From: Candidatus Bathyarchaeia archaeon | GTDB taxonomy: Bacteria; Hydrogenedentota; Hydrogenedentia; Hydrogenedentales; SLHB01 | NCBI GenBank assembly: GCA_035530195.1 | Contig: DATKVG010000128.1 | Coordinates: 597 to 64,596, forward strand | DNA length: 64,000 nt | Direction: 5' to 3' | Part shown: positions 35,221-49,689 of the stretch, piece by piece | Layout: the number at the start of each line of letters is the position of its first letter | Numbering within the stretch: the stretch's first letter is position 1 | Translations under genes and position numbers: made by a program | The notes under the pieces: model-generated | Database searches by the model: none | The model's input: the letters and a program-made list of their open reading frames with translations, nothing else | Told to the model about the DNA's origin: nothing

Positions 35221-35333
35221 GTCCTTGCTATAAGCCACAGTCACAACCCCTGGTTTTCGCAGTTGCGCCGTCCGAATGCTCATACTGTGCCTCGGCTGGT
35301 TTAGCGCGTGCGCGCGCACGCGCCATTTAACAT

Positions 35334-35407
35334 GGTTGGGGCGGAAGGATTCGAACCTCCGAATGCCGGGACCAAAACCCGGTGCCTTACCACTTGGCGA
35401 CGCCCCA
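35334..35407 (-). tRNA. tRNA-Gln (anticodon UUG), CCA encoded
   Basis: The reverse complement TGGGGCGTCGCCAAGTGGTAAGGCACCGGGTTTTGGTCCCGGCATTCGGAGGTTCGAATCCTTCCGCCCCAACCA folds as a cloverleaf. It has a 7-bp acceptor stem, anticodon stem CCGGG/CCCGG with loop TTTTGGT, and a GGAGG-TTCGAAT-CCTTC T-arm. It closely resembles E. coli tRNA-Gln. Confidence 0.9.
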
Positions 35408-37639: not shown

Positions 37640-37768
37640 ATGAAACACGCAAAACCTTTGTCCAAGGCAATTCTTGGACCTACCAGTGGTATCCTGAGTC
37701 TCCTGCAGTTGCTGATAAACTTGGGGGTCCTCAACATTGAAGACATCTTCAAGAAGGACGGCGCCTAG
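37640..37768 (+). CDS. Small peptide P1 (42 aa), candidate precursor/bacteriocin-like peptide
   Basis: MKHAKPLSKAILGPTSGILSLLQLLINLGVLNIEDIFKKDGA. This is an internal start of ORF 37580..37768 with a purine-rich SD (aagaggaaaggga) upstream. It shares the MKH start and the D[IL]F..D.A end with P3. Confidence 0.55.
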   Translation: MKHAKPLSKAILGPTSGILSLLQLLINLGVLNIEDIFKKDGA

Positions 37769-38005: not shown

Positions 38006-38035
38006 TTGACAAGGGTTTAGGCAGGGTGATATACT
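38006..38035 (+). promoter_or_regulatory. Sigma70-like promoter upstream of peptide genes P2-P4
   Basis: TTGACA (38006-38011), then N17 to ATATAC or N18 to TATACT. It lies about 60 nt upstream of the P2 ATG. Confidence 0.5.
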
Positions 38036-38094: not shown

Positions 38095-38244
38095 ATGAAA
38101 CATCTGCAAAAGGTATCGAAACCGCCCGTTCATGCTGCTGACATCCCTGTGGATGCCAAGATGGCGTTCATCATCTCGATTCTGACGGCATTCACCCCGA
38201 TTCTTGAGGCGAAAAACCCGGAGCAAACCACGCCAACCCCGTAG
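38095..38244 (+). CDS. Small peptide P2 (49 aa), candidate precursor peptide
   Basis: MKHLQKVSKPPVHAADIPVDAKMAFIISILTAFTPILEAKNPEQTTPTP. AGGAGA lies 4 nt upstream of the ATG. It is not in the ORF track (below the length cutoff). Confidence 0.6.
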   Translation: MKHLQKVSKPPVHAADIPVDAKMAFIISILTAFTPILEAKNPEQTTPTP

Positions 38245-38349: not shown

Positions 38350-38475
38350 ATGAAGCACATCAGGAAAATGACAGTAGCGAAGGCGGATGTATTTACGGAC
38401 ATTGGCGATTTCTTCACCAACCTGTGGGATGAAATCAGCGGCTTCTTCAAGGACCTGTTTGGCGGGGACGCCTAG
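38350..38475 (+). CDS. Small peptide P3 (41 aa), candidate precursor peptide
   Basis: MKHIRKMTVAKADVFTDIGDFFTNLWDEISGFFKDLFGGDA. AAGGAG lies 8 nt upstream. It is not in the ORF track. Confidence 0.65.
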   Translation: MKHIRKMTVAKADVFTDIGDFFTNLWDEISGFFKDLFGGDA

Positions 38476-38505: not shown

Positions 38506-38673
38506 ATGAGACACGTATTGAAGGTATCTGCCACGTTGATGCGGCCCGAGGAGGGCCATCGCGCTCCTGTGGCAGTGCCGGATCGGGCCGACGCGAAGAC
38601 GGACTTCATGAATGCCGTCTATAACGCGTGGACCGATTTTGTGTACCAGAAGAAAAACGAGTTGAGCGTGTAA
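38506..38673 (+). CDS. Small peptide P4 (55 aa), candidate precursor peptide
   Basis: MRHVLKVSATLMRPEEGHRAPVAVPDRADAKTDFMNAVYNAWTDFVYQKKNELSV. GGAGG lies 6 nt upstream. It is not in the ORF track. Confidence 0.65.
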   Translation: MRHVLKVSATLMRPEEGHRAPVAVPDRADAKTDFMNAVYNAWTDFVYQKKNELSV

Positions 38674-38700
38674 ACCTGCCGTCGAAAACTTGCAGTACTG

Positions 38701-38740
38701 ACCGGGACTCCAGTGTCTTGAAGTCCCGGTTCTGTTTTCT
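38701..38740 (+). terminator. Rho-independent terminator/attenuator between the peptide genes and the enzyme genes
   Basis: ACCGGGACT-ccagtgtcttga-AGTCCCGGT followed by TCTGTTTTCT. Confidence 0.6.
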
Positions 38741-38774
38741 ATACGATCCGGTAAGTGAGGAATGATAAGGACTT

Positions 38775-39311
38775 GTGATTAAGGGCGCGCATAGCGTAAT
38801 CCGTTCGACCGACCCCGATGACGCGGGGGCGCTGAAGTCGGTTTACGACTCTCAGGCGCCGCGGTCGTCGCTGCTCGACCAGCGCCGGGAATTGAACCCG
38901 CCGACGCGGGACGAGCTGCGCGAGGTTATGGGCCAGAAGGAGATGGGGAAGGCGGTGTTTTATACGGTGGAGGATCCGGGCGGCGAAATCTGTGGATTCT
39001 GCTGTCTACGGGGGCTGAATCCCGAGGCGCAGTTCAGCGAATTTGTGGTGATTTTTCTGAATGAAGCGGCGTTTTCGACGCCGATGGCGGACGAAGTATT
39101 CGGGTTTTTGTCGCGGCTGGCGTTCCAGCGGATGCACAACCGCAAGGTGGTGACGCACTGCCTGGACAGCGAGACCGAATATCGGAAGTTTCTGATAGGC
39201 CATGGGTTCAAGAGCGCGGGCGTACAGCGGGACGTGGTGTTTTCGCAGGGGAGGTGGTTCAACCTGGAGGCGTTGACGCTTCGGGCCGCTGATTGTACGT
39301 TTGCCGCTTAA
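38775..39311 (+). CDS. GNAT acetyltransferase, RimJ/RimL-like (divergent)
   Basis: GTG start. The C-terminal half (...VFGFLSRLAFQRMHNRKVVTHCLDSETEYRKFLIGHGFKSAGVQRDVVFSQGRWFNLEALTL) follows the Acetyltransf_3 layout. Confidence 0.7.
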   Translation: MIKGAHSVIRSTDPDDAGALKSVYDSQAPRSSLLDQRRELNPPTRDELREVMGQKEMGKAVFYTVEDPGGEICGFCCLRGLNPEAQFSEFVVIFLNEAAFSTPMADEVFGFLSRLAFQRMHNRKVVTHCLDSETEYRKFLIGHGFKSAGVQRDVVFSQGRWFNLEALTLRAADCTFAA

Positions 39312-39341: not shown

Positions 39342-39986
39342 ATGGCAATTAGGACCAGGACGTTCATCCGCCGGGCGGAGCGTGAAGATTTGGATACGGT
39401 GGTGGCGTGGATGGAGGATCCGGATTTTCAGCTTTTCCTTTACGGCGACCCGGCGCGATCGCCCAAGCAGATCCGTGAGCAGATTGTGTCGATGCTTGGG
39501 CGGTCGTCGGCCCAGACGGTGCCGGGCGGCCTGTACCTGATAATCGACTCGGCGGAACATGGTCCGCTGGGTTTGTTGTCGCTTCAGAACATCAGTTGGC
39601 GCAACCGCAGTTGCAGCATTGACTTGTACATGGGCAACAAGGAGATGCGGCACAAGCTGACGGCGGGGATCGCCTTTTACCGGGCGATGCAGTACGCGTT
39701 TGAAGAGCTGAACCTGCACCGGGTCAATGCTTACATTTACGCGTTCAACGAGGCGTCGTGGATGATCCTGGAGCGGATGGGTGCGGTGCGCGAACTGACG
39801 TTGCCCGAACACGTGGCCAGGGACGGCAGACTTTACGATCTTTACGGGTATGGGTTGCTGCGGCACGAGTTCGAGGCGTTCAAGGGAAAGAACCCGCACC
39901 TGGTCGAGGACGTGGTCGAATCCATGAGGGGGTTGAATTCGGGGCCGGCAGGGGGTGGCGAAAAGGCTGCGGAGAAAGATACGTGA
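39342..39986 (+). CDS. GNAT acetyltransferase, RimJ/RimL-like
   Basis: IRRAEREDLDTVVAWMEDPDF...AFYRAMQYAFEELNLHRVNAYIYAFNEASWMILERMGAVRELTLPEHVARDGRLYDLYGYGLL. Confidence 0.85.
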   Translation: MAIRTRTFIRRAEREDLDTVVAWMEDPDFQLFLYGDPARSPKQIREQIVSMLGRSSAQTVPGGLYLIIDSAEHGPLGLLSLQNISWRNRSCSIDLYMGNKEMRHKLTAGIAFYRAMQYAFEELNLHRVNAYIYAFNEASWMILERMGAVRELTLPEHVARDGRLYDLYGYGLLRHEFEAFKGKNPHLVEDVVESMRGLNSGPAGGGEKAAEKDT

Positions 39987-40876
39987 GCCTGCCAGCGGCC
40001 ATTTTTCTGTGCCTGATGCTGGGACACGCAGGCTTTGCGTTTTTTGTCAACCGCAGGCGGGGAGGTGTTGCGGGGGGCACAAACTTGCTGGTGTCGGCGT
40101 GGCCGTTTTACGTGGTTTTTGTTTCAGGCATCCGGCATCGGACGCCGGCGCTGCGGGCAGGCGCGGTTCTTCAGACGCTGCTGTTTGCTGTGGCATGCTG
40201 GATTGCGGCGGGCAGGGGTGTGTGGAGCCGCGAGTTGATATCTCCGATAGCAATCGGGGCCGGGCTGGCAGCCGGTCATCTGATATTCGGAATGAGCGTG
40301 CTGGCGACGCACAGGTCTTTACGGCAGGCGGGGAGGCACCTGATTGACTTGGGGCCGCTTTGGAATTATCTGACGGACAACCCGCGCATCCTGATGCAGT
40401 TTGCCAGCGTGAGCATCGCGGAAGAGACCATTTATCGGGCGGCGTTGCAGCCGCTGGCGGTGAGTTGGGTCGGGCCGGTTTTGGGCGTGGGGGCGGTGGC
40501 GGTGGTGTTTGCGTGCGTCCACGAACACTTTTTCCGGAACAGCTTGAGGCAGTCGGGCGAGTTTTTGGCGTTCGCGCTGTTGCTTGGCGGCCTTTATTAC
40601 TGGACGGGCAGCCTGATTCTTGTTATGGTCGTTCACGCGGCGCGGAACGTGGAAATCGCCTTCATGGAACGGCTCGCCCAGATAGAGGAATCGGGCGACC
40701 CGGACGCGGGCGAACGCGAGGCCCTGTTCGCCGAGGGCAGGCTGATCGAGGCGCTGGTGGTGGCGCCGGGGTGCGGGATGGCGGTGGGGTGCGTGGACCT
40801 GGCGGTCGAGCCGGTCTGTGAACCGGGGGCGTATCCGGTTCAGGCGCGGTGTTTTGGTCCGTTGGAGAACGTATGA
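39983..40876 (+). CDS. CPBP-family (CAAX/Abi-type) intramembrane glutamic metalloprotease
   Basis: It is polytopic, with all three CPBP motifs: EETIYR (EExxxR), FACVH (FxxxH) and HAARN (HxxxN). The GTG start overlaps the GNAT stop (GTGA). This is the in-frame part of ORF 39758..40876. Confidence 0.8.
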   Translation: MSLPAAIFLCLMLGHAGFAFFVNRRRGGVAGGTNLLVSAWPFYVVFVSGIRHRTPALRAGAVLQTLLFAVACWIAAGRGVWSRELISPIAIGAGLAAGHLIFGMSVLATHRSLRQAGRHLIDLGPLWNYLTDNPRILMQFASVSIAEETIYRAALQPLAVSWVGPVLGVGAVAVVFACVHEHFFRNSLRQSGEFLAFALLLGGLYYWTGSLILVMVVHAARNVEIAFMERLAQIEESGDPDAGEREALFAEGRLIEALVVAPGCGMAVGCVDLAVEPVCEPGAYPVQARCFGPLENV

Positions 40877-41886
40877 AAACCGAATATTTGGTGCGCATCG
40901 ACCGGGTCGATAAAACCTTCAAGACACGTCATCTGTTTTATAAGGACGACACGACGCCGCGCCGGCTATTGCACAAAAAGCTGGTGCAGGCGGCGAGGAA
41001 CATCGATTTTGGGATACGGGCCGGGGAGATTTTCGGCCTTCTCGGCCCAAACGGCGCGGGCAAGACCACGACGGTGAAGATGGTCTCGGGGCTGGTGCGG
41101 CCGGACAGTGGCGCGGTGTACGTGGACGGGCTGAACGTCGACAAAAAACGCCTGCAGGTGCTGAGGAAAGTCGGCGTGGTGCTCGAAGGTACGCGCACGA
41201 GCATTTGGCCGCTGACGCCGTACGAAAACCTGATGTATTACGGCAACCTGAAAGACGTGAAGGGGCGGGTGCTGAAAGAGCGTGCGAAGTCGCTGCTGAC
41301 ATTTATCGGGCTTGATCATAAGCAGCACATCGAGGTGAGGAAACTGTCGCGCGGCGAGAAACAGAAGCTGGCTATCTGCATCGCGCTGATTGCGGACCCG
41401 CCGGTGGTCCTGCTGGACGAGCCGACGACGGGCCTCGATGTCCAGAGCAGCCGCAACATCAAGGACAGAATCCTGGAGATGACGAGGGAGCAGGGAAAGT
41501 GCGTGCTGGTGACGACACACGACATGAACGTGGCGCAGGAGATCTGCGATCGGATCGGCATCATCGACCATGGCGTGCTGGTGGCGTGCCAGCCCAAGGA
41601 ATCGCTGCTGGATGTGTTCAGCGACCCGGTGTTCGAGTTCAAGCTGGACCGGCTGGTGCCCAACTCGATTTTGGACGGGATAGCGCATATCAACGAGATG
41701 ACGATGCGGATCGAAGAAGAGGGCCCGGTAGTGTCCGTGGCGCTGGAAACGGACCTCGAGGCGCGGTCGCGGGCACTGTACGACGTGGTGCAGCGGTTTC
41801 GGGATCAGGGCATTCTGTTGCGGTCGGTTTCGCAGCGGCAGCAGACGCTCGAGAACGTGTTTCTGCGGCTGACGGGCAAGAAGTAG
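40873..41886 (+). CDS. ABC transporter ATP-binding protein
   Basis: Walker A GLLGPNGAGKTT, signature LSRGEKQKLAI and Walker B VVLLDEPTTGLD. ATGA overlap with the CPBP stop. Confidence 0.9.
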   Translation: MKTEYLVRIDRVDKTFKTRHLFYKDDTTPRRLLHKKLVQAARNIDFGIRAGEIFGLLGPNGAGKTTTVKMVSGLVRPDSGAVYVDGLNVDKKRLQVLRKVGVVLEGTRTSIWPLTPYENLMYYGNLKDVKGRVLKERAKSLLTFIGLDHKQHIEVRKLSRGEKQKLAICIALIADPPVVLLDEPTTGLDVQSSRNIKDRILEMTREQGKCVLVTTHDMNVAQEICDRIGIIDHGVLVACQPKESLLDVFSDPVFEFKLDRLVPNSILDGIAHINEMTMRIEEEGPVVSVALETDLEARSRALYDVVQRFRDQGILLRSVSQRQQTLENVFLRLTGKK

Positions 41887-41905: not shown

Positions 41906-42799
41906 ATGGGTTTTTTGCTGGTACTGAAGGCTGAATTTATCCGCAACATGATCGTGATGCGGCGGTACTGGTTCAGGACCGTGACGGGAATGATCATCGG
42001 GTATGGGATGCTGATGTCGATGATCTGGATGTTTCATTCGAAGGGGGGCGTAGATCCGGAGGGGTTTGCGAGCCGGTTCAGCGATCCGGAAGATGCGACG
42101 AAATTTGCCCTGACTTTTATCATCGGGATGCTGGCGTTTGGCATAGTGGGCCTTTTCAGCCAGGGTTTGCAGGGGATGGCGCAAAGCGGCCAGTTGGAGC
42201 AGTTGTGCATGAGCCCGCACGGGCTGGTGTCGAATTTCATGGCGCGGTCGTTGATGGCGTCGGTGACGTCGGTGCCGACGTCGGCGCTGATGGTTTGGTT
42301 GATCGCGTACCGGGTGAGATTCGACTTGCCGATGACGACGTTGGCCGACTTTTTGACGCTGGTTCTTCTGTTGGCGCTGGCGTTCTTGAACCTGATTGGG
42401 TTTGGTTTCATGGTGGGCGGATTGGTGCTGGTGTTCAAGCAGACCGGCCAGGTGGCGGTGATCGTGCGGATGGTCTTGTTGGGTATCGCCGTCATGGCCG
42501 ACGACGTGCGGACGTTCCCAAAGATACTTCAAGTGTTTTCGCACGCGTTGCCCATCACAGATGCCACGCTGTGCCTGATCCACCTTGTGATCCGGGGGCA
42601 AATGCAGCCGGTGTATGACGCGAAAGGCAAGCCGCTGATGGAAGGGGCGAAGGTGGTGGCGAACTACGTGCCGATCCTGTTTCACCCGTCGTTTTTGTTG
42701 CTGCTGGTGAACTGCGCCGTCTGGACGTTCCTGGGCATCGCCTGTTTTCGCTTCATGGAGAACTGGAGCCGCAACAAGGGCACCCTGGGGGCCTACTGA
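41906..42799 (+). CDS. ABC-2 type transporter permease
   Basis: Six hydrophobic segments, following the ATPase by 19 nt. Confidence 0.8.
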   Translation: MGFLLVLKAEFIRNMIVMRRYWFRTVTGMIIGYGMLMSMIWMFHSKGGVDPEGFASRFSDPEDATKFALTFIIGMLAFGIVGLFSQGLQGMAQSGQLEQLCMSPHGLVSNFMARSLMASVTSVPTSALMVWLIAYRVRFDLPMTTLADFLTLVLLLALAFLNLIGFGFMVGGLVLVFKQTGQVAVIVRMVLLGIAVMADDVRTFPKILQVFSHALPITDATLCLIHLVIRGQMQPVYDAKGKPLMEGAKVVANYVPILFHPSFLLLLVNCAVWTFLGIACFRFMENWSRNKGTLGAY

Positions 42800-44718
42800 T
42801 GCCGCGGGAGGCCTTGCACCGGTTCGAGCACGACGGCAAACGGTTTGCCATCGACCCCGAGACGTGTTTTTGTTTCGAGTGCGACGCGATCTGCTGGGAC
42901 GTGCTCGAGCACTACGCGCAGGAGACCAGCAACCGGATCTTCCACCTTCTCAAAAACAAGTACAGCCTGAAAGAGTTGGAGGAAGTGGCGGGCGAACTCG
43001 AATGGCTGCGCGCATCCAAATCAATACTCAGGGCGCCCAAAAAGGAAGACCTGCTCAAACAGTTCGAGGTCGAACGCGGGCTGAAACGGGTGTCGGTGTC
43101 CTTGCCGCGGGAGACGGCGGAGCCCATACAGGCGCAGGCGCGGTGGTTTGGCCGGCCGGCGCGGGTGGTATCGTCGGGCGGGCGTGAAATCGGCCGTGGT
43201 GCGGTTTTGCTGCTGCTGGGCCGGTCGGGCGCGCAGAAAGAATTGCAGCTCGAATTTGTCGAAGAGGGGCACATACACCACCCTGAGTTGATTGCGGAAC
43301 TGTGCGGGTGGGCGTTGAACTCGGCGCGGCTTGCCGAGAAAACGCTGACGGTCTCGGTGCATGTCACGAACATTACCGTGGCGAAACTGCCCGAGGCGCT
43401 TGCGGGGCATACGCTGGGTGCGAAGCTCGAACTGACGAGGGCAGAGGGCGTCCTGGCGCACGTGAACGCGCTGGCGGCCGCTATCGGCGAGACGTTGCCG
43501 CGGTTGGCCAAAGCGCTCGAGCCGGACGCCAAAGACGCCGGCGGGCGTGTCGTTGTTCGGCCGAACCACCCCGGGTTTGGAGAAGTGGCGGAAACGCTGG
43601 ACGATTCCGGTTTCACGGGCATCGAGATTGATCTTGACGGTGCGTACGTGGCCAACCCGGGGCTGGAGCCGGGCGCAGTCACGGCCGCAATGGAAGAGAA
43701 CGCGCGCTATTACGCGGGGCGGCTGATGAAACACCATTACTTCCGGCTGGACCCGATTGCGCCGCTGTTCTGGCGGATCTATTCGGGCGCGCCGGTGGCG
43801 AGATCGGACTCCGCGGGTACCAACGAACTGGCGGTCGAGGGCGACGGCAGGATTTATCCGTCGATGCGGCTGTCGGGCAAAGAACCGTTTTGCCTGGGCA
43901 GTTTGACGGACGGGCTGGACGAGGAGAAAGTCCGGCCGTTTGAGGATGTGGGGGCGCTCACCACTCATCCATGCACGGGCTGTTGGGCGCGCAACCTCTG
44001 CGGCGGGGGCACGGCGGCGGTGCATTATGCGCTGGCGGGCTCGATTCGGACGCCACACCCGGCGTGGTGCGGCGGGCAGCGGGCGTGGATGCAGAGCGCG
44101 GTTTCGGCGTTTCAGGTGCTGTCCTCGGCGGGCATCCACTTTGAACGGGTTTACAGGATCCTTGGCCGGCGGGAGAAACCGTCGCTGTTCGCGCTGGCCA
44201 AGGCGGCGATTACGATGAGCATCGGCGTCCGGCCCATCGAAGAAGCCGACGCGGAACTGGTGACCAAATGGGAGAGCTGGAACGAGTCGGCCTACTTCCT
44301 GTTCAACGAATCGGGCGTGTACCTGGCAACGAAATACGACCGCGAGATGGACTCGCTCCATCCGCGGGGCATCGATCAGGAACTGATACTGCTGCGGAAA
44401 TCCGGCGAGCCGTTCGGGCTGCTCAAGCTGCGGCCCAAATGGGTCGGCGGGGCCGTGCTGGTTTGGGTGTACATGCGCGACGAGGCCGACTACGCCGCCG
44501 AGCCCATCCGCAAAAGTTTCCGCGCCATCCTCAAAGAGGCGGCCGGCCAGAGCAGCGTGCGCCAGATCGTCGTGCCGGTCTCGCCAAAGGAGAAGCCGCT
44601 GAGCGAGTTTTTATCTGCGGTGGGTTTTGGGGAAGTGGGCGCGATGCGCGATGCCCTGTACCTGCACGGAAAATACGAGGATGTCACGCTGTATGCGACC
44701 GCGCCAGACAGGCTTTAA
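42799..44718 (+). CDS. Radical-SAM-maturase-like protein lacking the CxxxCxxC motif, with a partial SPASM domain and a C-terminal RimJ/RimL-like GNAT domain
   Basis: The N-terminus LHRFEHDGKRFAIDPETCFCFECDAICWDVLEHY resembles the start of SCIFF/anSME-type peptide maturases. There is no CxxxCxxC anywhere. The SPASM-like region is FCLGS...HPCTGCWARNLCGGGT...AWCGG. The last ~190 aa (IGVRPIEEADAELVTKWESW...DALYLHGKYEDVTLYA) look like a GNAT. TGATG overlap with the permease stop. Confidence 0.75.
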   Translation: MPREALHRFEHDGKRFAIDPETCFCFECDAICWDVLEHYAQETSNRIFHLLKNKYSLKELEEVAGELEWLRASKSILRAPKKEDLLKQFEVERGLKRVSVSLPRETAEPIQAQARWFGRPARVVSSGGREIGRGAVLLLLGRSGAQKELQLEFVEEGHIHHPELIAELCGWALNSARLAEKTLTVSVHVTNITVAKLPEALAGHTLGAKLELTRAEGVLAHVNALAAAIGETLPRLAKALEPDAKDAGGRVVVRPNHPGFGEVAETLDDSGFTGIEIDLDGAYVANPGLEPGAVTAAMEENARYYAGRLMKHHYFRLDPIAPLFWRIYSGAPVARSDSAGTNELAVEGDGRIYPSMRLSGKEPFCLGSLTDGLDEEKVRPFEDVGALTTHPCTGCWARNLCGGGTAAVHYALAGSIRTPHPAWCGGQRAWMQSAVSAFQVLSSAGIHFERVYRILGRREKPSLFALAKAAITMSIGVRPIEEADAELVTKWESWNESAYFLFNESGVYLATKYDREMDSLHPRGIDQELILLRKSGEPFGLLKLRPKWVGGAVLVWVYMRDEADYAAEPIRKSFRAILKEAAGQSSVRQIVVPVSPKEKPLSEFLSAVGFGEVGAMRDALYLHGKYEDVTLYATAPDRL

Positions 44719-44757: not shown

Positions 44758-45297
44758 ATGGAGATTGTGGTGAACGAAACGGCTGGTAGCAGAGATCCGT
44801 GGCGGGCGGCGGCGTTTGGTTTGTGGGAGTTGTTTTTTTTGGTGGGCCTGCTTCCGGAACCGGTGTTTCGGTTGCTGCGTGATGCGGGCGCGGTACTGCC
44901 TCAGCGGGCCGTCGTCAATTCGCCGTACGCGATCACGATTGGGCTGGCGGGTTTTCTCGCCGTGTTTGCCTACAACCAGTGCCGCAGGCACGGGCTGTCG
45001 CACGGCGAAGCGGGGGACAAGTCGCTGCAGTATGCGGTCGTGGCGCTGGTCGCGTTTCTCCCGGTGGATTTTATCGGGGTGCTGAACGTCATCGGAAACG
45101 AGCTTGTTCGGAACCGGTCGACCATCTATCTTTCGACGGCGGCCAAATCGGTGGCCTGGCTTTATCTGATGATGCTTATATGCAAGTACTACCTTGGGAA
45201 CGATTCGGCGTTTATGAGCATGCCATCGTTTTTCCCAAGCACGCGCCGAGGCGCGAAGGGCGGTGGCGGTAGTGGCGGGTCGGTTGAAGGGGTGTAA
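44758..45297 (+). CDS. Hypothetical integral membrane protein (about 4 TM) with a Gly-rich tail
   Basis: Hydrophobic segments FGLWELFFLVGLL, ITIGLAGFLAVFAY, AVVALVAFLPVDFIGVL and VAWLYLMMLICKYY. It starts 40 nt downstream of the fusion gene. Confidence 0.55.
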   Translation: MEIVVNETAGSRDPWRAAAFGLWELFFLVGLLPEPVFRLLRDAGAVLPQRAVVNSPYAITIGLAGFLAVFAYNQCRRHGLSHGEAGDKSLQYAVVALVAFLPVDFIGVLNVIGNELVRNRSTIYLSTAAKSVAWLYLMMLICKYYLGNDSAFMSMPSFFPSTRRGAKGGGGSGGSVEGV

Positions 45298-45545: not shown

Positions 45546-46532
45546 ATGAACCGCTTGATGTTGTTAGGCTTCCTGCTTGCCACAGCGACGGCACAAGGCA
45601 GTGGGACGTTGCAACTTGGCGAGCCTACAGTTGAACAAGATCGTATCACGGTACCTGTCGTGCTTGGCGGCGACTTGAGCGGCGGTGTTTCGGCGATGGA
45701 TTTTCGGTTTCGCTACAACCCGGAGGCGTTGCAGCCGGTATCGGTGGTTGCGGGCACGGCGGCTGAGCGCGCCGACAAACGGGTGATGAGCAACCAGCGG
45801 ACGCCGGGCGAGTACGCGGTGGTGATGATGGGCTTCAATCAGTCGTCGTGCGGGCCGGGCGAGGCCATTCGGATTGTGCTGCAGCGTCTGCAAGGGCCGG
45901 ACCAGAAGTGGGACCTGAGCCTGAGCGACCCGACGATGTCGAGTGTGGATGGGCGGCTGATTGAAAGCCAGGTGCTGCCATCGGACATCGAGCCGGCGCG
46001 AGAGGTTGACCAGGGTCAGGAAGAAGAGGAGACGGGGCGTCAACCACGACTTCCGGAGGTGGATACGGGCGCGGAGGAGGCGGGACCGGTGAAAGAACTG
46101 GCGGCGCCGCAGGGTGCAGGCTATGATGCGCCTATGGACGGACCGGTCGCGGAAGGGGCGTCAAGAACCGCGGCGGCTGAAAGTCTGAAAGCCGCCTTGC
46201 AGTCGGCCGAAGAGGTGCGGCAAGGAATTGAGTCGCCGGAACAGAATCCGGCCGATCAGCTTGAGGGGCTGGGGCAAGAAGCCGGTGTCGTGGGCGAAAC
46301 GGGATTGAACGTGGCCACCGAGAGCGGCGGCCGAATAGATACAGCAGGTGTTACAGCTTCGGGTAGGATGTCGCCCGATCAGGCTTTGCGGAACAATACA
46401 GTTGAACCTCAGTCGGGAACCAACGCGGTGGAACGGCGTGGCGGAACCTATATGCCGTTTGCGGTAGCGGGTTTTTGCGTGTTAGCGTTGGCGGCCGTCC
46501 TTGTGTGGCGGCGGTCCAGACTGATTGGCTAA
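45546..46532 (+). CDS. Exported cohesin-like domain protein with an acidic linker and a C-terminal TM anchor
   Basis: It has a signal peptide. ITVPVVLGGDLSGGVSAMDFRFRYNPEALQPVSVVAG...YAVVMMGF resembles the cohesin fold signature. The C-terminus is MPFAVAGFCVLALAAVLVWRRSR. Confidence 0.55.
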   Translation: MNRLMLLGFLLATATAQGSGTLQLGEPTVEQDRITVPVVLGGDLSGGVSAMDFRFRYNPEALQPVSVVAGTAAERADKRVMSNQRTPGEYAVVMMGFNQSSCGPGEAIRIVLQRLQGPDQKWDLSLSDPTMSSVDGRLIESQVLPSDIEPAREVDQGQEEEETGRQPRLPEVDTGAEEAGPVKELAAPQGAGYDAPMDGPVAEGASRTAAAESLKAALQSAEEVRQGIESPEQNPADQLEGLGQEAGVVGETGLNVATESGGRIDTAGVTASGRMSPDQALRNNTVEPQSGTNAVERRGGTYMPFAVAGFCVLALAAVLVWRRSRLIG

Positions 46533-47488: not shown

Positions 47489-49495
47489 ATGTTGCCGTTT
47501 GCACTGCTTCTTGCGGCCGGTGTGCTGAGCCAAGCCGCAACACCGTTACCGGCCGAGTTGGCCGAAGCCGCCGCCTGGGCGGGAGCGAAGTTCGAGGGCA
47601 TTGAACAGCCCGCCCCGTATGCCTTTGACACCGGTCCTTTTTTCGGGACGCCGGATTTTGTGCGGGGCGTCGCGGGATGGGCGGTTGAGCGAGGCAAGCG
47701 GCAAATTGATCCGGCCCGAACCGGCCATACGATCGTTTACCGCGACCCCGCGACCGGGCTTGCGATCCGGTGCGAGGGCGTGGTCTACAGCGATTTTCCG
47801 ACGGTCGAGTGGACGCTCTTTTTGAAGAATGAGGGGACAGCGCCGGTTCCGCTGAAGGATGTGCTGGCGATTAGGACGGGTTTCCGCAAGGAGCCCGGCA
47901 AGAGGTTTGTCCTTTATCACCACTCGGGGGACAATTGCACCGCCGACAGCTACGAACCGCATGTCACCGAGCTGGTGGCCACGGAGAAATTGCGGCTCGC
48001 CAACACCGGCGGCCGGCCCACCCAGACCACCTTCCCGTATTTCAACGTCTCGGCGGGCAACAAAGGCGTGATTTTTGTTGTTGCATGGCCGGGGCAGTGG
48101 TTTGCGGAGTTCGCACGGAACTCCGGCAACTCCCTGACGCTTGCCGCGGGGCAGGATCGGGTGCAACTCGACCTGCAGCCGGGCGAGGAAATCCGCACGC
48201 CGCTGATCGTGCTCCAGTTCTGGCACGGGGAAGGCGAGGCGGGGCGCGTTCGGTCGCAGAACGTGTGGCGGGCCTGGATGATCGCGCACAACATCCCGCG
48301 GCCCGGCGGGAACCTGCCGCCGCTGCCGCAGTTGGCCGCGTGCAGCAGCCACCAGTTCGGCGAGATGATCCACGCCGATTCGGAAAGCCAGAAGTTTTTC
48401 GTGAGCAAATACCTCGAGCGCGGGTTCAAACTGGCGTACTGGTGGATGGACGCGGGCTGGTACTGGTGCGACGGGCAATGGCCAAAAACGGGGACGTGGG
48501 AAGTCGATACGAGCCGGTTCCCGGGCGGGCTTCGTCCGATCAGCGATTTTGCGCTCGAGCGCGGCGTGCACACGCTGGTGTGGTTCGAGCCGGAGCGCGT
48601 CCATAGCGGGACGTGGCTGGCGGATCAGCGGCCGCAATGGGTGCATGGCGGGAAGGACGGCGGGCTGCTGGACCTGGGCAACCCCGAGGTGCGCGCCTGG
48701 CTCACGGACCACGTCGACGGTCTGCTCAACAGCGAAGGGATTCACCTGTACCGCCAGGATTTCAACATCGACCCGCTCGAGTTCTGGAGGAAAAACGATG
48801 CGCCCGGCCGCCGGGGCATCACGGAGATCCGCCACGTCGAGGGTTACCTGGCGTACTGGGACGAATTGCGGCGGCGTCATCCGGATATGCTCATTGATTC
48901 ATGCGCCAGCGGCGGGCGGCGAAACGATCTCGAGACGCTGCGGCGTGCGGTGCCGCTGCTGCGGAGCGATTACATCATGGAACCGGTCGGCAACCAGTGC
49001 CATACCTGGGCGCTGGCGCAATGGTTTCCGTTTTACGGCACCGGCACCTCAAAAACCGATCCATACCTGATCCAGAGCACGTTATGCCCGCATTTCACCG
49101 CGTGCTGGGATATGCGCGACGCGACGATCGATTACGAGGGGATCCGGCGAATCATCGACCAGTGGACCGAGGTGGCGCCGTGCTATTTCGGCGACTACTA
49201 CGCGCTGACGCCGTATTCGCTCGCAGAGGATCAGTGGATCGCGTGGCAGTTCGACCTGCCGGGCGAAGGCAGGGGATTTGTCCAGGCGTTCCGGCGCGGA
49301 GGCTGCGAGGGCGAGTCTGTCAAGCTGAAACTGCAGGGGCTGGACGCGGAAGCGGCCTATACCCTTTGCGATGCAAGCCAGCCTGAACAGGTGAAGACAT
49401 ATACGGGCGCGGAGTTGCTTGCCGCCGGCTTTGATTTGCCTATTACGCAAAAACCCGGCGCAGTACTCTGGAAATACAGCAAAGTTGCTCAATAA
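47489..49495 (+). CDS. GH36-like alpha-galactosidase, exported
   Basis: KLAYWWMDAGWY, WFEPERV, LYRQDFNIDP and DSCASGGRRNDLETL. Signal peptide MLPFALLLAAGVLSQA, with AAGAGGA upstream of the ATG at 47489. The ORF track starts at 47312. Confidence 0.75.
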   Translation: MLPFALLLAAGVLSQAATPLPAELAEAAAWAGAKFEGIEQPAPYAFDTGPFFGTPDFVRGVAGWAVERGKRQIDPARTGHTIVYRDPATGLAIRCEGVVYSDFPTVEWTLFLKNEGTAPVPLKDVLAIRTGFRKEPGKRFVLYHHSGDNCTADSYEPHVTELVATEKLRLANTGGRPTQTTFPYFNVSAGNKGVIFVVAWPGQWFAEFARNSGNSLTLAAGQDRVQLDLQPGEEIRTPLIVLQFWHGEGEAGRVRSQNVWRAWMIAHNIPRPGGNLPPLPQLAACSSHQFGEMIHADSESQKFFVSKYLERGFKLAYWWMDAGWYWCDGQWPKTGTWEVDTSRFPGGLRPISDFALERGVHTLVWFEPERVHSGTWLADQRPQWVHGGKDGGLLDLGNPEVRAWLTDHVDGLLNSEGIHLYRQDFNIDPLEFWRKNDAPGRRGITEIRHVEGYLAYWDELRRRHPDMLIDSCASGGRRNDLETLRRAVPLLRSDYIMEPVGNQCHTWALAQWFPFYGTGTSKTDPYLIQSTLCPHFTACWDMRDATIDYEGIRRIIDQWTEVAPCYFGDYYALTPYSLAEDQWIAWQFDLPGEGRGFVQAFRRGGCEGESVKLKLQGLDAEAAYTLCDASQPEQVKTYTGAELLAAGFDLPITQKPGAVLWKYSKVAQ

Positions 49496-49500
49496 GGATG

Positions 49501-49633
49501 TGCAGGCGGGACGCCCGCACCACAATAAGTTCGAAGTCCGAAGTGCGAAGTTTGTCTGGACGGGAATGCAGGCGGGACGCCCGCACCACAACAGCGGCGT
49601 TTTTCTAATTGTGGTGCGGGCGTCTCGCCTGCA
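49501..49633. repeat. Family-C elements: TGCAGGCGGGACGCCCGCACCACAA at 49501-49525 and 49567-49591, inverted copy at 49609-49633
   Basis: Read directly. The last two copies form a ~25-bp-stem hairpin with one mismatch. Confidence 0.7.
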
Positions 49634-49689
49634 CGCGGTTTTGTGCTAGAATGGGCCGCATTGGTGAAGACATTGTAGGAGAAGAATCA

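Follow-up and report, generated by a model that had tools for sequence, protein, structure and literature searches.

In several pathways for peptides that are ribosomally synthesised and then modified post-translationally (RiPPs), a partner that is not itself catalytic hands the leader-bound peptide over to the catalyst. The non-catalytic E1-like and ocin-ThiF-like partners of YcaO enzymes and the stand-alone RiPP recognition elements (RREs) of the PqqD type are examples. GCN5-related N-acetyltransferases (GNATs) are found among RiPP-tailoring enzymes, such as GodH, MdnD, GdvG and the acetyltransferases of lasso peptides. A fusion of a radical S-adenosylmethionine (radical-SAM) domain with a lysine acetyltransferase (KAT)/GNAT domain is known as Elp3, which has an active cluster, lacks an RRE and a SPASM domain, and acts on tRNA. 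In selidamide pathways, GNATs (KspN, PhaN, NpuN) carry out a leader-dependent acylation of Lys or Orn (PMC8784127; PMC13647313). The SCIFF maturase CteB binds the leader of its peptide CteA by extending the β-sheet of its RRE between β3 and α3 (PMC8326336; PMC6231123). The present analysis concerns a stretch of 64,000 nucleotides from contig DATKVG010000128.1 (assembly GCA_035530195.1), referred to as the window, and in it a gene whose product joins a complete maturase of the CteB type, devoid of its radical cluster, to a C-terminal GNAT domain.

The fusion resembles the SCIFF maturases of the CteB/ScfB type (PDB 5WGG; TIGR03974, NF040492) throughout RRE, barrel and SPASM domain. Their cognate peptides share with those next to the fusion a leader of the form MKHIK-x-hydrophobic-polar, and the nearest canonical relative shares an operon of precursor, CPBP protease, ABC ATPase and ABC-2 permease. 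The fusion differs from these enzymes by the absence of the CX3CX2C motif, the GGE motif and the ligands of auxiliary cluster I (Aux I), and by the presence of the C-terminal GNAT domain together with two to three further GNAT genes. SCIFF precursors are rich in cysteines for thioether formation, whereas the precursors accompanying the fusion are mostly Cys-free and have a conserved Lys near the C-terminus. The selidamide GNATs, likened here by their description, also belong to RiPP-type clusters, but they are stand-alone enzymes working with NHLP/Nif11 or other leaders, and none has been described as fused to an RRE scaffold derived from a radical-SAM/SPASM enzyme, or as depending on one. The E1-like, ocin-ThiF-like and PqqD-type partners follow the same delivery logic, although fold and ancestry differ; the scaffold of the fusion is a complete radical-SAM/SPASM maturase without its radical cluster, and its GNAT partner is covalently attached. 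Elp3 has the same order of domains, a barrel of the radical-SAM type followed by a GNAT. No Elp3 chain occurs among the 31 matches at E ≤ 1 of a query profile, built from 25 family members, to the PDB, which makes the fusion an independent one. RimJ, RimL and SpeG (PDB 3IGR, 1S7L, 4JLY and others) are the best structural and profile matches to residues 475–639, but the fused GNAT lacks their Q/RxxGxG/A signature and is tethered to a peptide-docking module. The literature searched holds no description of the fusion family or of a SPASM–GNAT architecture, in line with the initial annotation, which knew of no such fusion. The family brings together two known themes, namely non-catalytic partners that bear an RRE and the tailoring of RiPPs by GNATs.

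A complete SCIFF-type maturase fused to a GNAT domain

The initial annotation, made from the DNA sequence alone, had placed an open reading frame (ORF) of 639 residues at 42799..44718 on the plus strand. The frame lies exactly there, and the strings quoted from its product (LHRFEHDGKRFAIDPETCFCFECDAICWDVLEHY, GLKRVSVSLPRETAEP, FCLGS, CTGC, LCGGGT and AWCGG) are all present. In the PDB profile comparison, CteB (5WGG/5WHY) was the single strong match (E 7.7e-40, query residues 4–435 against chain residues 5–445), and both profile and alignment extend over the whole enzyme, including RRE, radical-SAM barrel and SPASM domain. The fusion is homologous over residues 4–435 to the entire SCIFF/ranthipeptide maturase CteB, its RRE being aligned with CteB residues 5–90. 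A Foldseek search of the PDB with the AlphaFold2 model likewise returned CteB at the top (E 5.7e-16, TM 0.69), followed by RimJ, RimL and SpeG on the C-terminal domain (TM 0.65–0.77, probability 1.0) and also by anSME. The model has a mean predicted local distance difference test (pLDDT) score of 79, with values above 90 in the barrel core and below 50 in the loop that would have held the cluster (residues 107–125) and in the linker (457–472). The expected fold of a CteB-like RRE, radical-SAM barrel and SPASM domain without the radical-SAM cluster was thus recovered by profile and by structure. The likeness that the initial annotation had seen between the N-terminus and SCIFF/anSME-type maturases holds for the SCIFF type, represented by CteB, and not for anSME, which has no RRE.

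Standard domain models capture the fusion only in part. The Pfam Radical_SAM hidden Markov model (HMM) does not match it. The SPASM model TIGR04085 exceeds its cutoff of 27 bits with a score of 31.3 (residues 339–420), and NCBIfam places residues 293–459 on the C-terminal parts of the SCIFF, not_ScfB, QhpD, nif11 and PapB maturases. All equivalog models remain far under their cutoffs, with 66.8 against 425 bits for TIGR03974 and 70.4 against 855 for NF040492.

The domains are conserved to different degrees. Mean pairwise identity is highest in the RRE (0.61), followed by the SPASM domain (0.57), the GNAT domain (0.54) and the barrel (0.44), the least conserved folded part, and falls to 0.31 in the former cluster loop. 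Most of the nearly invariant residues of the RRE (n = 147) are held by β3 (C23, F24, C25, E27, C28 and D29) and α3 (E62, V63, E66, E68, W69, L70 and R71), the two elements between which CteB takes up the leader of CteA.

Loss of the radical cluster and retention of one auxiliary site

Cysteine conservation was counted over 147 full-length family members. The fusion of the window contains ten cysteines (23, 25, 28, 32, 169, 365, 392, 395, 401 and 424). As the initial annotation had stated, no CX3CX2C motif occurs in the 639 residues, nor does it in any of the 147 relatives, which excludes a motif hidden by a sequencing error. The CNLRCKYC of CteB aligns with a Cys-free, poorly conserved loop (…LPRE…WFG…). 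The SAM-binding FFGGEP of CteB and of P0168, the closest canonical relative, aligns with LEFVEEG (LEFxEE) or equivalents in all fusions, and according to the alignment the GGE motif is absent from every member of the family.

In the SPASM domain, C392, C395 and C401 are present in 147 of 147 members and C424 in 146. Cysteines are infrequent at position 405, the one expected from CX3C (13/147), and at positions 365 (16/147) and 355 (24/147). The Aux II cluster of anSME is ligated by C317, C320, C326 and C348, and its Aux I cluster by C255, C261, C276 and C330 (PMC5715301). In alignments with anSME and CteB, the Aux II ligands correspond to C392, C395, C401 and C424 of the fusion. The seven-Cys SPASM motif CX9-15GX4C-gap-CX2CX5CX3C-gap-C is not completed in the fusion, in which just CX2CX5C and the final Cys are conserved. 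This mapping, together with the loss of the other cysteines, indicates that one fully ligated auxiliary site has been kept and that the radical-SAM and Aux I sites have been lost. The earlier estimate of ligands for one cluster at most is borne out as to their number; the cysteine of FCLGS (C365), which it had included, is not conserved, and the set is C392/C395/C401/C424. In the divergent fusions P0156, P0159 and P0163, Aux I-type cysteines are still in place, while CX3CX2C and GGE are gone, which suggests that Aux I decayed stepwise, after the radical site was lost.

A second group of cysteines lies at the N-terminus. C23, C25 and C28 are present in 143–144 of the 147 members, and the AlphaFold2 strand formed by residues 24–28 is β3 of the RRE. 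The initial annotation had described a Cys4 motif at this position, a reading that has to be corrected: C32 is Ser in 123 of 147 members, so the motif is Cys3 (CxCxxC), and it is partial or absent in divergent members, which carry zero to two of the three CFCFEC cysteines. Canonical relatives keep the middle cysteine alone (…SICFEAD, …SNCFEVD). On this comparison, CFCFEC elaborates, in a clade-specific way, a strand whose conserved pattern is x-x-x-F-E-x-D. With the invariant His3 of the leader, the CxCxxC motif of the leader-binding strand may make up a metal site.

These cysteines also form the basis of another explanation, according to which the fusion would be a redox or radical enzyme whose CFCFEC cysteines ligate a site-differentiated Fe–S cluster, or another metal, that works with Aux II. 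The retention of the three cysteines in nearly all members and the strict retention of the Aux II site speak in its favour, and radical-SAM enzymes with motifs other than CX3CX2C are known. However, CFCFEC is located on the RRE strand β3, off the barrel, no member has retained GGE, conservation among the folded regions is weakest in the barrel, and divergent fusions with the same operon hold only zero to two of the three cysteines. Most of the presumed substrates, moreover, have no cysteines to cross-link. The position of the motif, the loss of GGE, the weak conservation of the barrel and the absence of the motif from divergent members make such a role very improbable.

Precursor-like peptides and a SCIFF-type leader

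Upstream of GNAT1, the first enzyme gene of the operon, the window contains four precursor-like ORFs (Table 1). The leader pattern M[KR]H[ILVMFAT]xx[ILVM][STN] was searched for at the start of ATG-initiated ORFs of 19–99 residues in the window and in the loci of relatives. All 94 matches lie at most 2.6 kb upstream of GNAT1 and on the operon strand, a region that takes up 115 kb, the strand sequence totalling about 2.03 Mb; there are zero matches elsewhere. Between one and four leader-bearing ORFs were found in 43 of 46 eligible loci. The consensus of the leader is M-K-H-I/L/V-K/R-x-I/V/L-S/T-x-x-P/R/K-A-x-A.

NCBIfam scans of six precursor peptides assigned them to no family, and a phmmer search of one precursor against the PDB gave no match. 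For this reason, the identity of the leader was established with the CteA 1–21 chain, retrieved by means of a SCIFF sequence. The crystallised CteA fragment is MKHIKILNGSTLKDSLKKGGC (PDB 5wgg_B), with the leader MKHIKILN; it matches the Hydrogenedentota leader at positions 1–5 and has the same hydrophobic/polar pattern at positions 7–8.

Three types of core follow the leader. The type A core is an aromatic, amphipathic sequence (ADAFTDFxNAxWRAWxDFxYxKKNE); in about 40 of 44 loci, its gene is the one next to GNAT1. Type B cores are hydrophobic helices with …AKE at their end, and type C contains two cysteines. Fewer than two core cysteines are found in 78 of 91 distinct precursors, and two or more occur in type C alone. 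A Lys located 5–9 residues before the C-terminus is common to 71 of 90 peptides, with all three types represented; in 68 of the 90 it is the sole Lys of the core, and N, E or D and a polar tail come after it. All four precursor ORFs of the window share the SCIFF-type leader and have a single conserved Lys at this place. For a bacteriocin-like gene, the phylum-wide conservation of the type A peptide is unusual.

An operon of the ancestral type

P0168 is the closest canonical radical-SAM relative of the fusion, with CNLRCKYC, FFGGEP and a full SPASM domain. In its operon (L086, 3435–8945), three Cys-rich MKHIKLLN precursors precede the maturase gene, and there are no GNATs. On the 3' side of this gene come a CPBP protease, an ABC ATPase and an ABC-2 permease, each with homology to its counterpart in the window (E 2e-15, 1e-48 and 1e-8, respectively). 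Further downstream, this locus contains two more radical-SAM genes, a 63-residue ORF and an S8 peptidase. The homology of the two operons implies that the Hydrogenedentota operon is derived from one of the ranthipeptide type. In a pathway of the ranthipeptide type, radical cross-linking thus appears to have given way to acyl transfer, with no change in leader recognition, protease and exporter. As judged from the sequences, the radical chemistry of the maturase and the cysteines of the core would have been lost in the derived operon, and GNATs would have been recruited, one of them by fusion.

The leader also bears on the possibility that the fusion has nothing to do with the small ORFs and is an acetyltransferase for resistance, immunity or housekeeping with a vestigial radical-SAM remnant. 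RimL-like GNATs can serve self-immunity, as MccE does, and CPBP proteins and ABC-2 pumps often serve as modules of bacteriocin immunity. Against such a role, the RRE is the best-conserved domain of the fusion, the SCIFF-type leader of the adjacent peptides matches the ancestry of this RRE, and the genes strictly co-occur, with stop/start overlaps in the operon. An acetyltransferase independent of the peptides is accordingly considered highly unlikely.

Distribution of the fusion family

Database searches retrieved more than 120 proteins of about 640 residues with 50–100% identity, nearly all from metagenome-assembled genomes (MAGs) of Candidatus Hydrogenedentes/Hydrogenedentota and with no annotation beyond "SPASM domain-containing protein", "GNAT family N-acetyltransferase" or hypothetical. 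A relative is encoded by 114 GTDB species genomes, always as the full-length fusion and with 38–85% identity. The fusion is almost confined to Hydrogenedentota. An exhaustive HMM search returned about 45 family representatives, all without CX3CX2C, then a clear gap, and then canonical maturases of 450–490 residues, nearly all with CNLRCxYC and CGGGC; P0213 and P0248 are exceptions. Divergent branches keep the fusion, including that of Ca. Hydrogenedens (P0154), and P0159 keeps the operon too.

P0001, which is identical to the protein of the window, is labelled "Candidatus Bathyarchaeia archaeon" at NCBI, and relatives in L003–L005, L009 and other loci are often labelled "uncultured Nitrospiraceae/Nitrospirales". 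The family otherwise belongs to Hydrogenedentota, and the MAGs with these deviating labels were probably mis-binned or wrongly named.

No support was found for an artefact, whether a pseudogene through frameshift or decay or an assembly that wrongly joined a radical-SAM gene to a GNAT gene. Such an origin is refuted by the more than 147 intact full-length orthologues (596–682 residues, 38–100% identity), which come from independent assemblies and conserve linker and domain order; an artefact is practically out of the question. The two halves are never split among the relatives. Short matches are fragments at contig ends, such as P0158, a partial sequence whose cluster mate has 682 residues.

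Proposed mechanism and the role of the fused GNAT

The best explanation, and probably the right one, is that the fusion is the leader-recognising maturase of a RiPP-type pathway with multiple precursors and that its GNAT domain acylates the docked peptide. The RRE would bind the MKH[ILV][KR]x[ILV][ST] leader by β-strand addition beside β3/α3, as in the CteB–CteA pair. The cluster-less barrel and the SPASM domain would serve as a scaffold held by one remaining [4Fe-4S] cluster at the Aux II site. The chemistry, an N-acylation or acetylation of the docked peptide from a putative acyl donor, would be supplied by the fused GNAT, and GNAT1 and the RimJ-like GNAT2 probably contribute. Since RRE-guided delivery implies that the leader is still attached, the conserved Lys 5–9 residues from the C-terminus is the best candidate for the modified site. 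The CPBP protease and the ABC-2 transporter would then trim and export the product.

That the radical-SAM scaffold has been repurposed as a docking module, as proposed in the initial annotation, finds support in the SCIFF leader of the upstream peptides, the conservation of the RRE and the P0168 operon; acyl transfer would be the accompanying activity. The layout is that of a RiPP gene cluster, with a conserved leader, variable cores and an adjoining RRE maturase, protease and transporter. The selidamide GNATs set a precedent for acylation of Lys in such a context. It is tentatively proposed, with rather less confidence, that the loci represent an undescribed, phylum-wide class of RiPPs, in which a SCIFF-type pseudoenzyme scaffolds the leader for the fused GNAT, N-acylation of Lys (or another residue) in Cys-free amphipathic peptides replaces the thioethers, and the CPBP protease possibly removes a tail in a CAAX-like manner.

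The presence of the GNAT itself, of the RimJ/RimL kind, was correctly recognised in the initial annotation, with Foldseek and profile in agreement. The profile matches for residues 475–639 are RimL and YdaF-like chains, and a C-terminal motif ...GF..EG..R......G.YhDv is conserved. Many orthologues have a precomputed match to PF13420 (Acetyltransf_4), for which P0159 scores 39.7 bits. GNAT1 and the fused GNAT are paralogues (hhalign 98.9%, E 4e-17); GNAT2, which is RimJ/PseH-like, stands further away.

Several observations weigh against acylation by the fused domain or against the model as a whole. In the fusion of the window, PF13420 remains just under threshold (23.0 against 24.3 bits, residues 478–630). 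The chief weakness is that the Q/RxxGxG/A pyrophosphate loop is missing, the FQGQGIMS of RimL being aligned with DYAxxxV, and this oddity of the β4–α3 loop is common to GNAT1 and the fused GNAT. With such a loop, the fused GNAT could take up its donor in another way or act as an adaptor. The operon contains no genes for an acyl donor or for lipid supply. An Nα-acetylation of the kind performed by RimJ and RimL would need prior removal of the leader, which fits RRE-guided delivery poorly. The three invariant cysteines on the leader-binding strand are not accounted for by a docking scaffold. Finally, all members come from uncultured MAGs.

Some of these points lead to a different assignment of the activity, in which both the radical-SAM part and the fused GNAT are dead, the fusion is a non-catalytic adaptor that perhaps dimerises with GNAT1, and GNAT1 and/or GNAT2 acylate the peptide. 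Besides the Gly-less CoA-binding loop and the sub-threshold Pfam score, this is favoured by the paralogy of the fused GNAT and GNAT1, as pseudoenzymes often pair with paralogues, and by GNAT2 being the best-conserved and most canonical GNAT of the operon. On the other hand, the fused GNAT is about as conserved as the SPASM domain, and residues in the region of the acceptor site (W491, W494, Y499, F500 and the motif YDREMDxLHP) are invariant. R571 and K572, at the N-terminus of helix α3, where phosphate could bind, are nearly invariant. As GNAT1 shares the atypical loop, this feature by itself cannot tell an active enzyme from a dead one. A pure adaptor is therefore regarded as unlikely, and catalysis by the fused GNAT on the docked peptide as the preferred reading.

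Organisation of the operon and its surroundings

The genes are arranged in the order GNAT1, GNAT2, CPBP protease, DrrA-type ABC ATPase, ABC-2 permease and, as the last gene, the fusion (Table 1). The order is kept in every locus with enough upstream DNA, at times with a third GNAT after GNAT2. The stop/start overlaps (GTGA, ATGA, TGATG) would make translational coupling possible. Between the last precursor gene and GNAT1 lies a hairpin that a simple terminator scan did not flag; it is possibly an attenuating terminator that sets the ratio of precursor to enzyme.

Table 1. Positions in the window of the precursor-like ORFs, the operon genes, the fusion domains and associated signals
Feature	Position	Strand	Remarks
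Precursor-like ORF 1	37640..37768	+	42 aa, MKHAKPLSKA..., SCIFF-type leader, hydrophobic core, ...FKKDGA tail
Sigma70-like promoter	38006-38035		Strong match: TTGACA, 18 nt spacer, TATACT, TG extension; 11/12; 60 bp upstream of ORF 2
Precursor-like ORF 2, type B	38095..38244	+	49 aa, MKHLQKVSKPPVHAADIPVD...LEAKNPEQ...
Precursor-like ORF 3	38350..38475	+	41 aa, MKHIRKMTVAKADVFTDIGDFF...
Precursor-like ORF 4, type A	38506..38673	+	55 aa, MRHVLKVS...ADAKTDFMNAVYNAWTDFVYQKKNELSV
GC-rich 10-bp hairpin, then UUCUGUUUUCU (U-rich)	38700..38741	+	Fold z = -2.8; after the last precursor gene, before GNAT1
GNAT1	38775..39311	+	178 aa; stand-alone paralogue of the fused GNAT domain
GNAT2	39342..39986	+	214 aa; RimJ/PseH-like Acetyltransf_3, highly conserved
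CPBP (Rce1-like) intramembrane protease	39983..40876	+	EExxYR, FxxxH, HxxRN intact; likely start GTG 39983, GTGA overlap with GNAT2 stop
DrrA-type ABC ATPase	40873..41886	+	Likely start ATG 40873, ATGA overlap with CPBP stop
ABC-2 permease	41906..42799	+	TGA stop overlaps fusion ATG by one base (TGATG)
Fusion gene	42799..44718	+	639 aa; RRE, cluster-less radical-SAM barrel, single-cluster SPASM, GNAT
RRE / winged-helix leader-binding domain (predicted)	42799..43068	+	aa 1-90; profile, AlphaFold2, conservation
CFCFEC (C23, C25, C28) on RRE strand β3	42865..42882	+	
Partial TIM barrel homologous to radical-SAM core	43069..43803	+	aa 91-335
Former cluster loop in barrel	43099-43179	+	aa 101-127; Cys-free; 31% pairwise identity
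SPASM remnant	43804..44166	+	aa 336-456; C392/C395/C401 = nt 43972-44001, C424 = nt 44068-44070
GNAT domain	44221..44715	+	aa 475-639; RimJ/RimL/SpeG-like fold

A third stand-alone GNAT, a duplicate of GNAT2, is found in L006, L011, L012, L014, L016, L017 and L032, each with a single precursor, of type A; the number of GNATs does not, therefore, scale with the number of precursor types. In L082 (10258–11871), the fusion gene of the divergent P0159 operon is followed by an outer-membrane efflux gene (OEP/TolC-like), as would suit export through the envelope of a diderm. No ORF with an MKH leader was found upstream in this locus.

A membrane ORF of 179 residues downstream of the fusion in the window (44758–45297) was dropped from the system, as it is not conserved in other loci. 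The flanks are unrelated to the operon. DUF362 and DUF6599 genes lie on the opposite strand, and downstream there are genes for a cohesin-domain protein, a response regulator and a GH36-like protein. The cohesin-domain protein (45546–46532, plus strand) has an acidic low-complexity region and a C-terminal transmembrane segment. A tRNA-Gln(TTG) is encoded upstream of the locus at 35333–35407 on the minus strand. Between the GH36-like and the Gfo/Idh/MocA genes (49479–49634), there are three copies of the 25-nt sequence TGCAGGCGGGACGCCCGCACCACAA, with a palindrome inside; one copy is inverted relative to the two direct ones, and the three could combine into large hairpins.

Implications

Two of the canonical-sized or differently fused homologues resemble the fusion in their losses. 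P0213 (L084, 453–2423) is a Cys-less radical-SAM/SPASM protein with a PqqD-like RRE and a fused Peptidase_S24 domain; its gene is preceded by a 32-residue ORF and followed by an active radical-SAM gene. P0248 (L088, 7001–8455) is a stand-alone radical-SAM/SPASM homologue with seven cysteines and no CX3CX2C motif. It is encoded between an active radical-SAM gene and a glycosyltransferase gene, with a 56-residue ORF upstream, and this locus may be a paired system of active and inactive maturases. With P0213 and P0248 as further examples, scaffolds derived from radical-SAM enzymes may be a wider, overlooked device.

Radical-SAM/SPASM genes are the main genome-mining handle for RiPPs of the sactipeptide and ranthipeptide kind, and radical chemistry is assumed for all of them. 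The fusion family indicates that a maturase can survive the loss of its radical chemistry as a scaffold for leader recognition that is coupled to another catalyst, which would mislead automated annotation. The module of RRE plus acyltransferase would be portable, with a leader of about 8–14 residues, and could serve the leader-guided acylation of peptides. With operons of the ancestral type and of the derived type both at hand, the family offers a clear case of a RiPP pathway that changes its chemistry while it keeps recognition, processing and export. For the Hydrogenedentota, a poorly known and uncultured phylum, it predicts a new, conserved peptide product.

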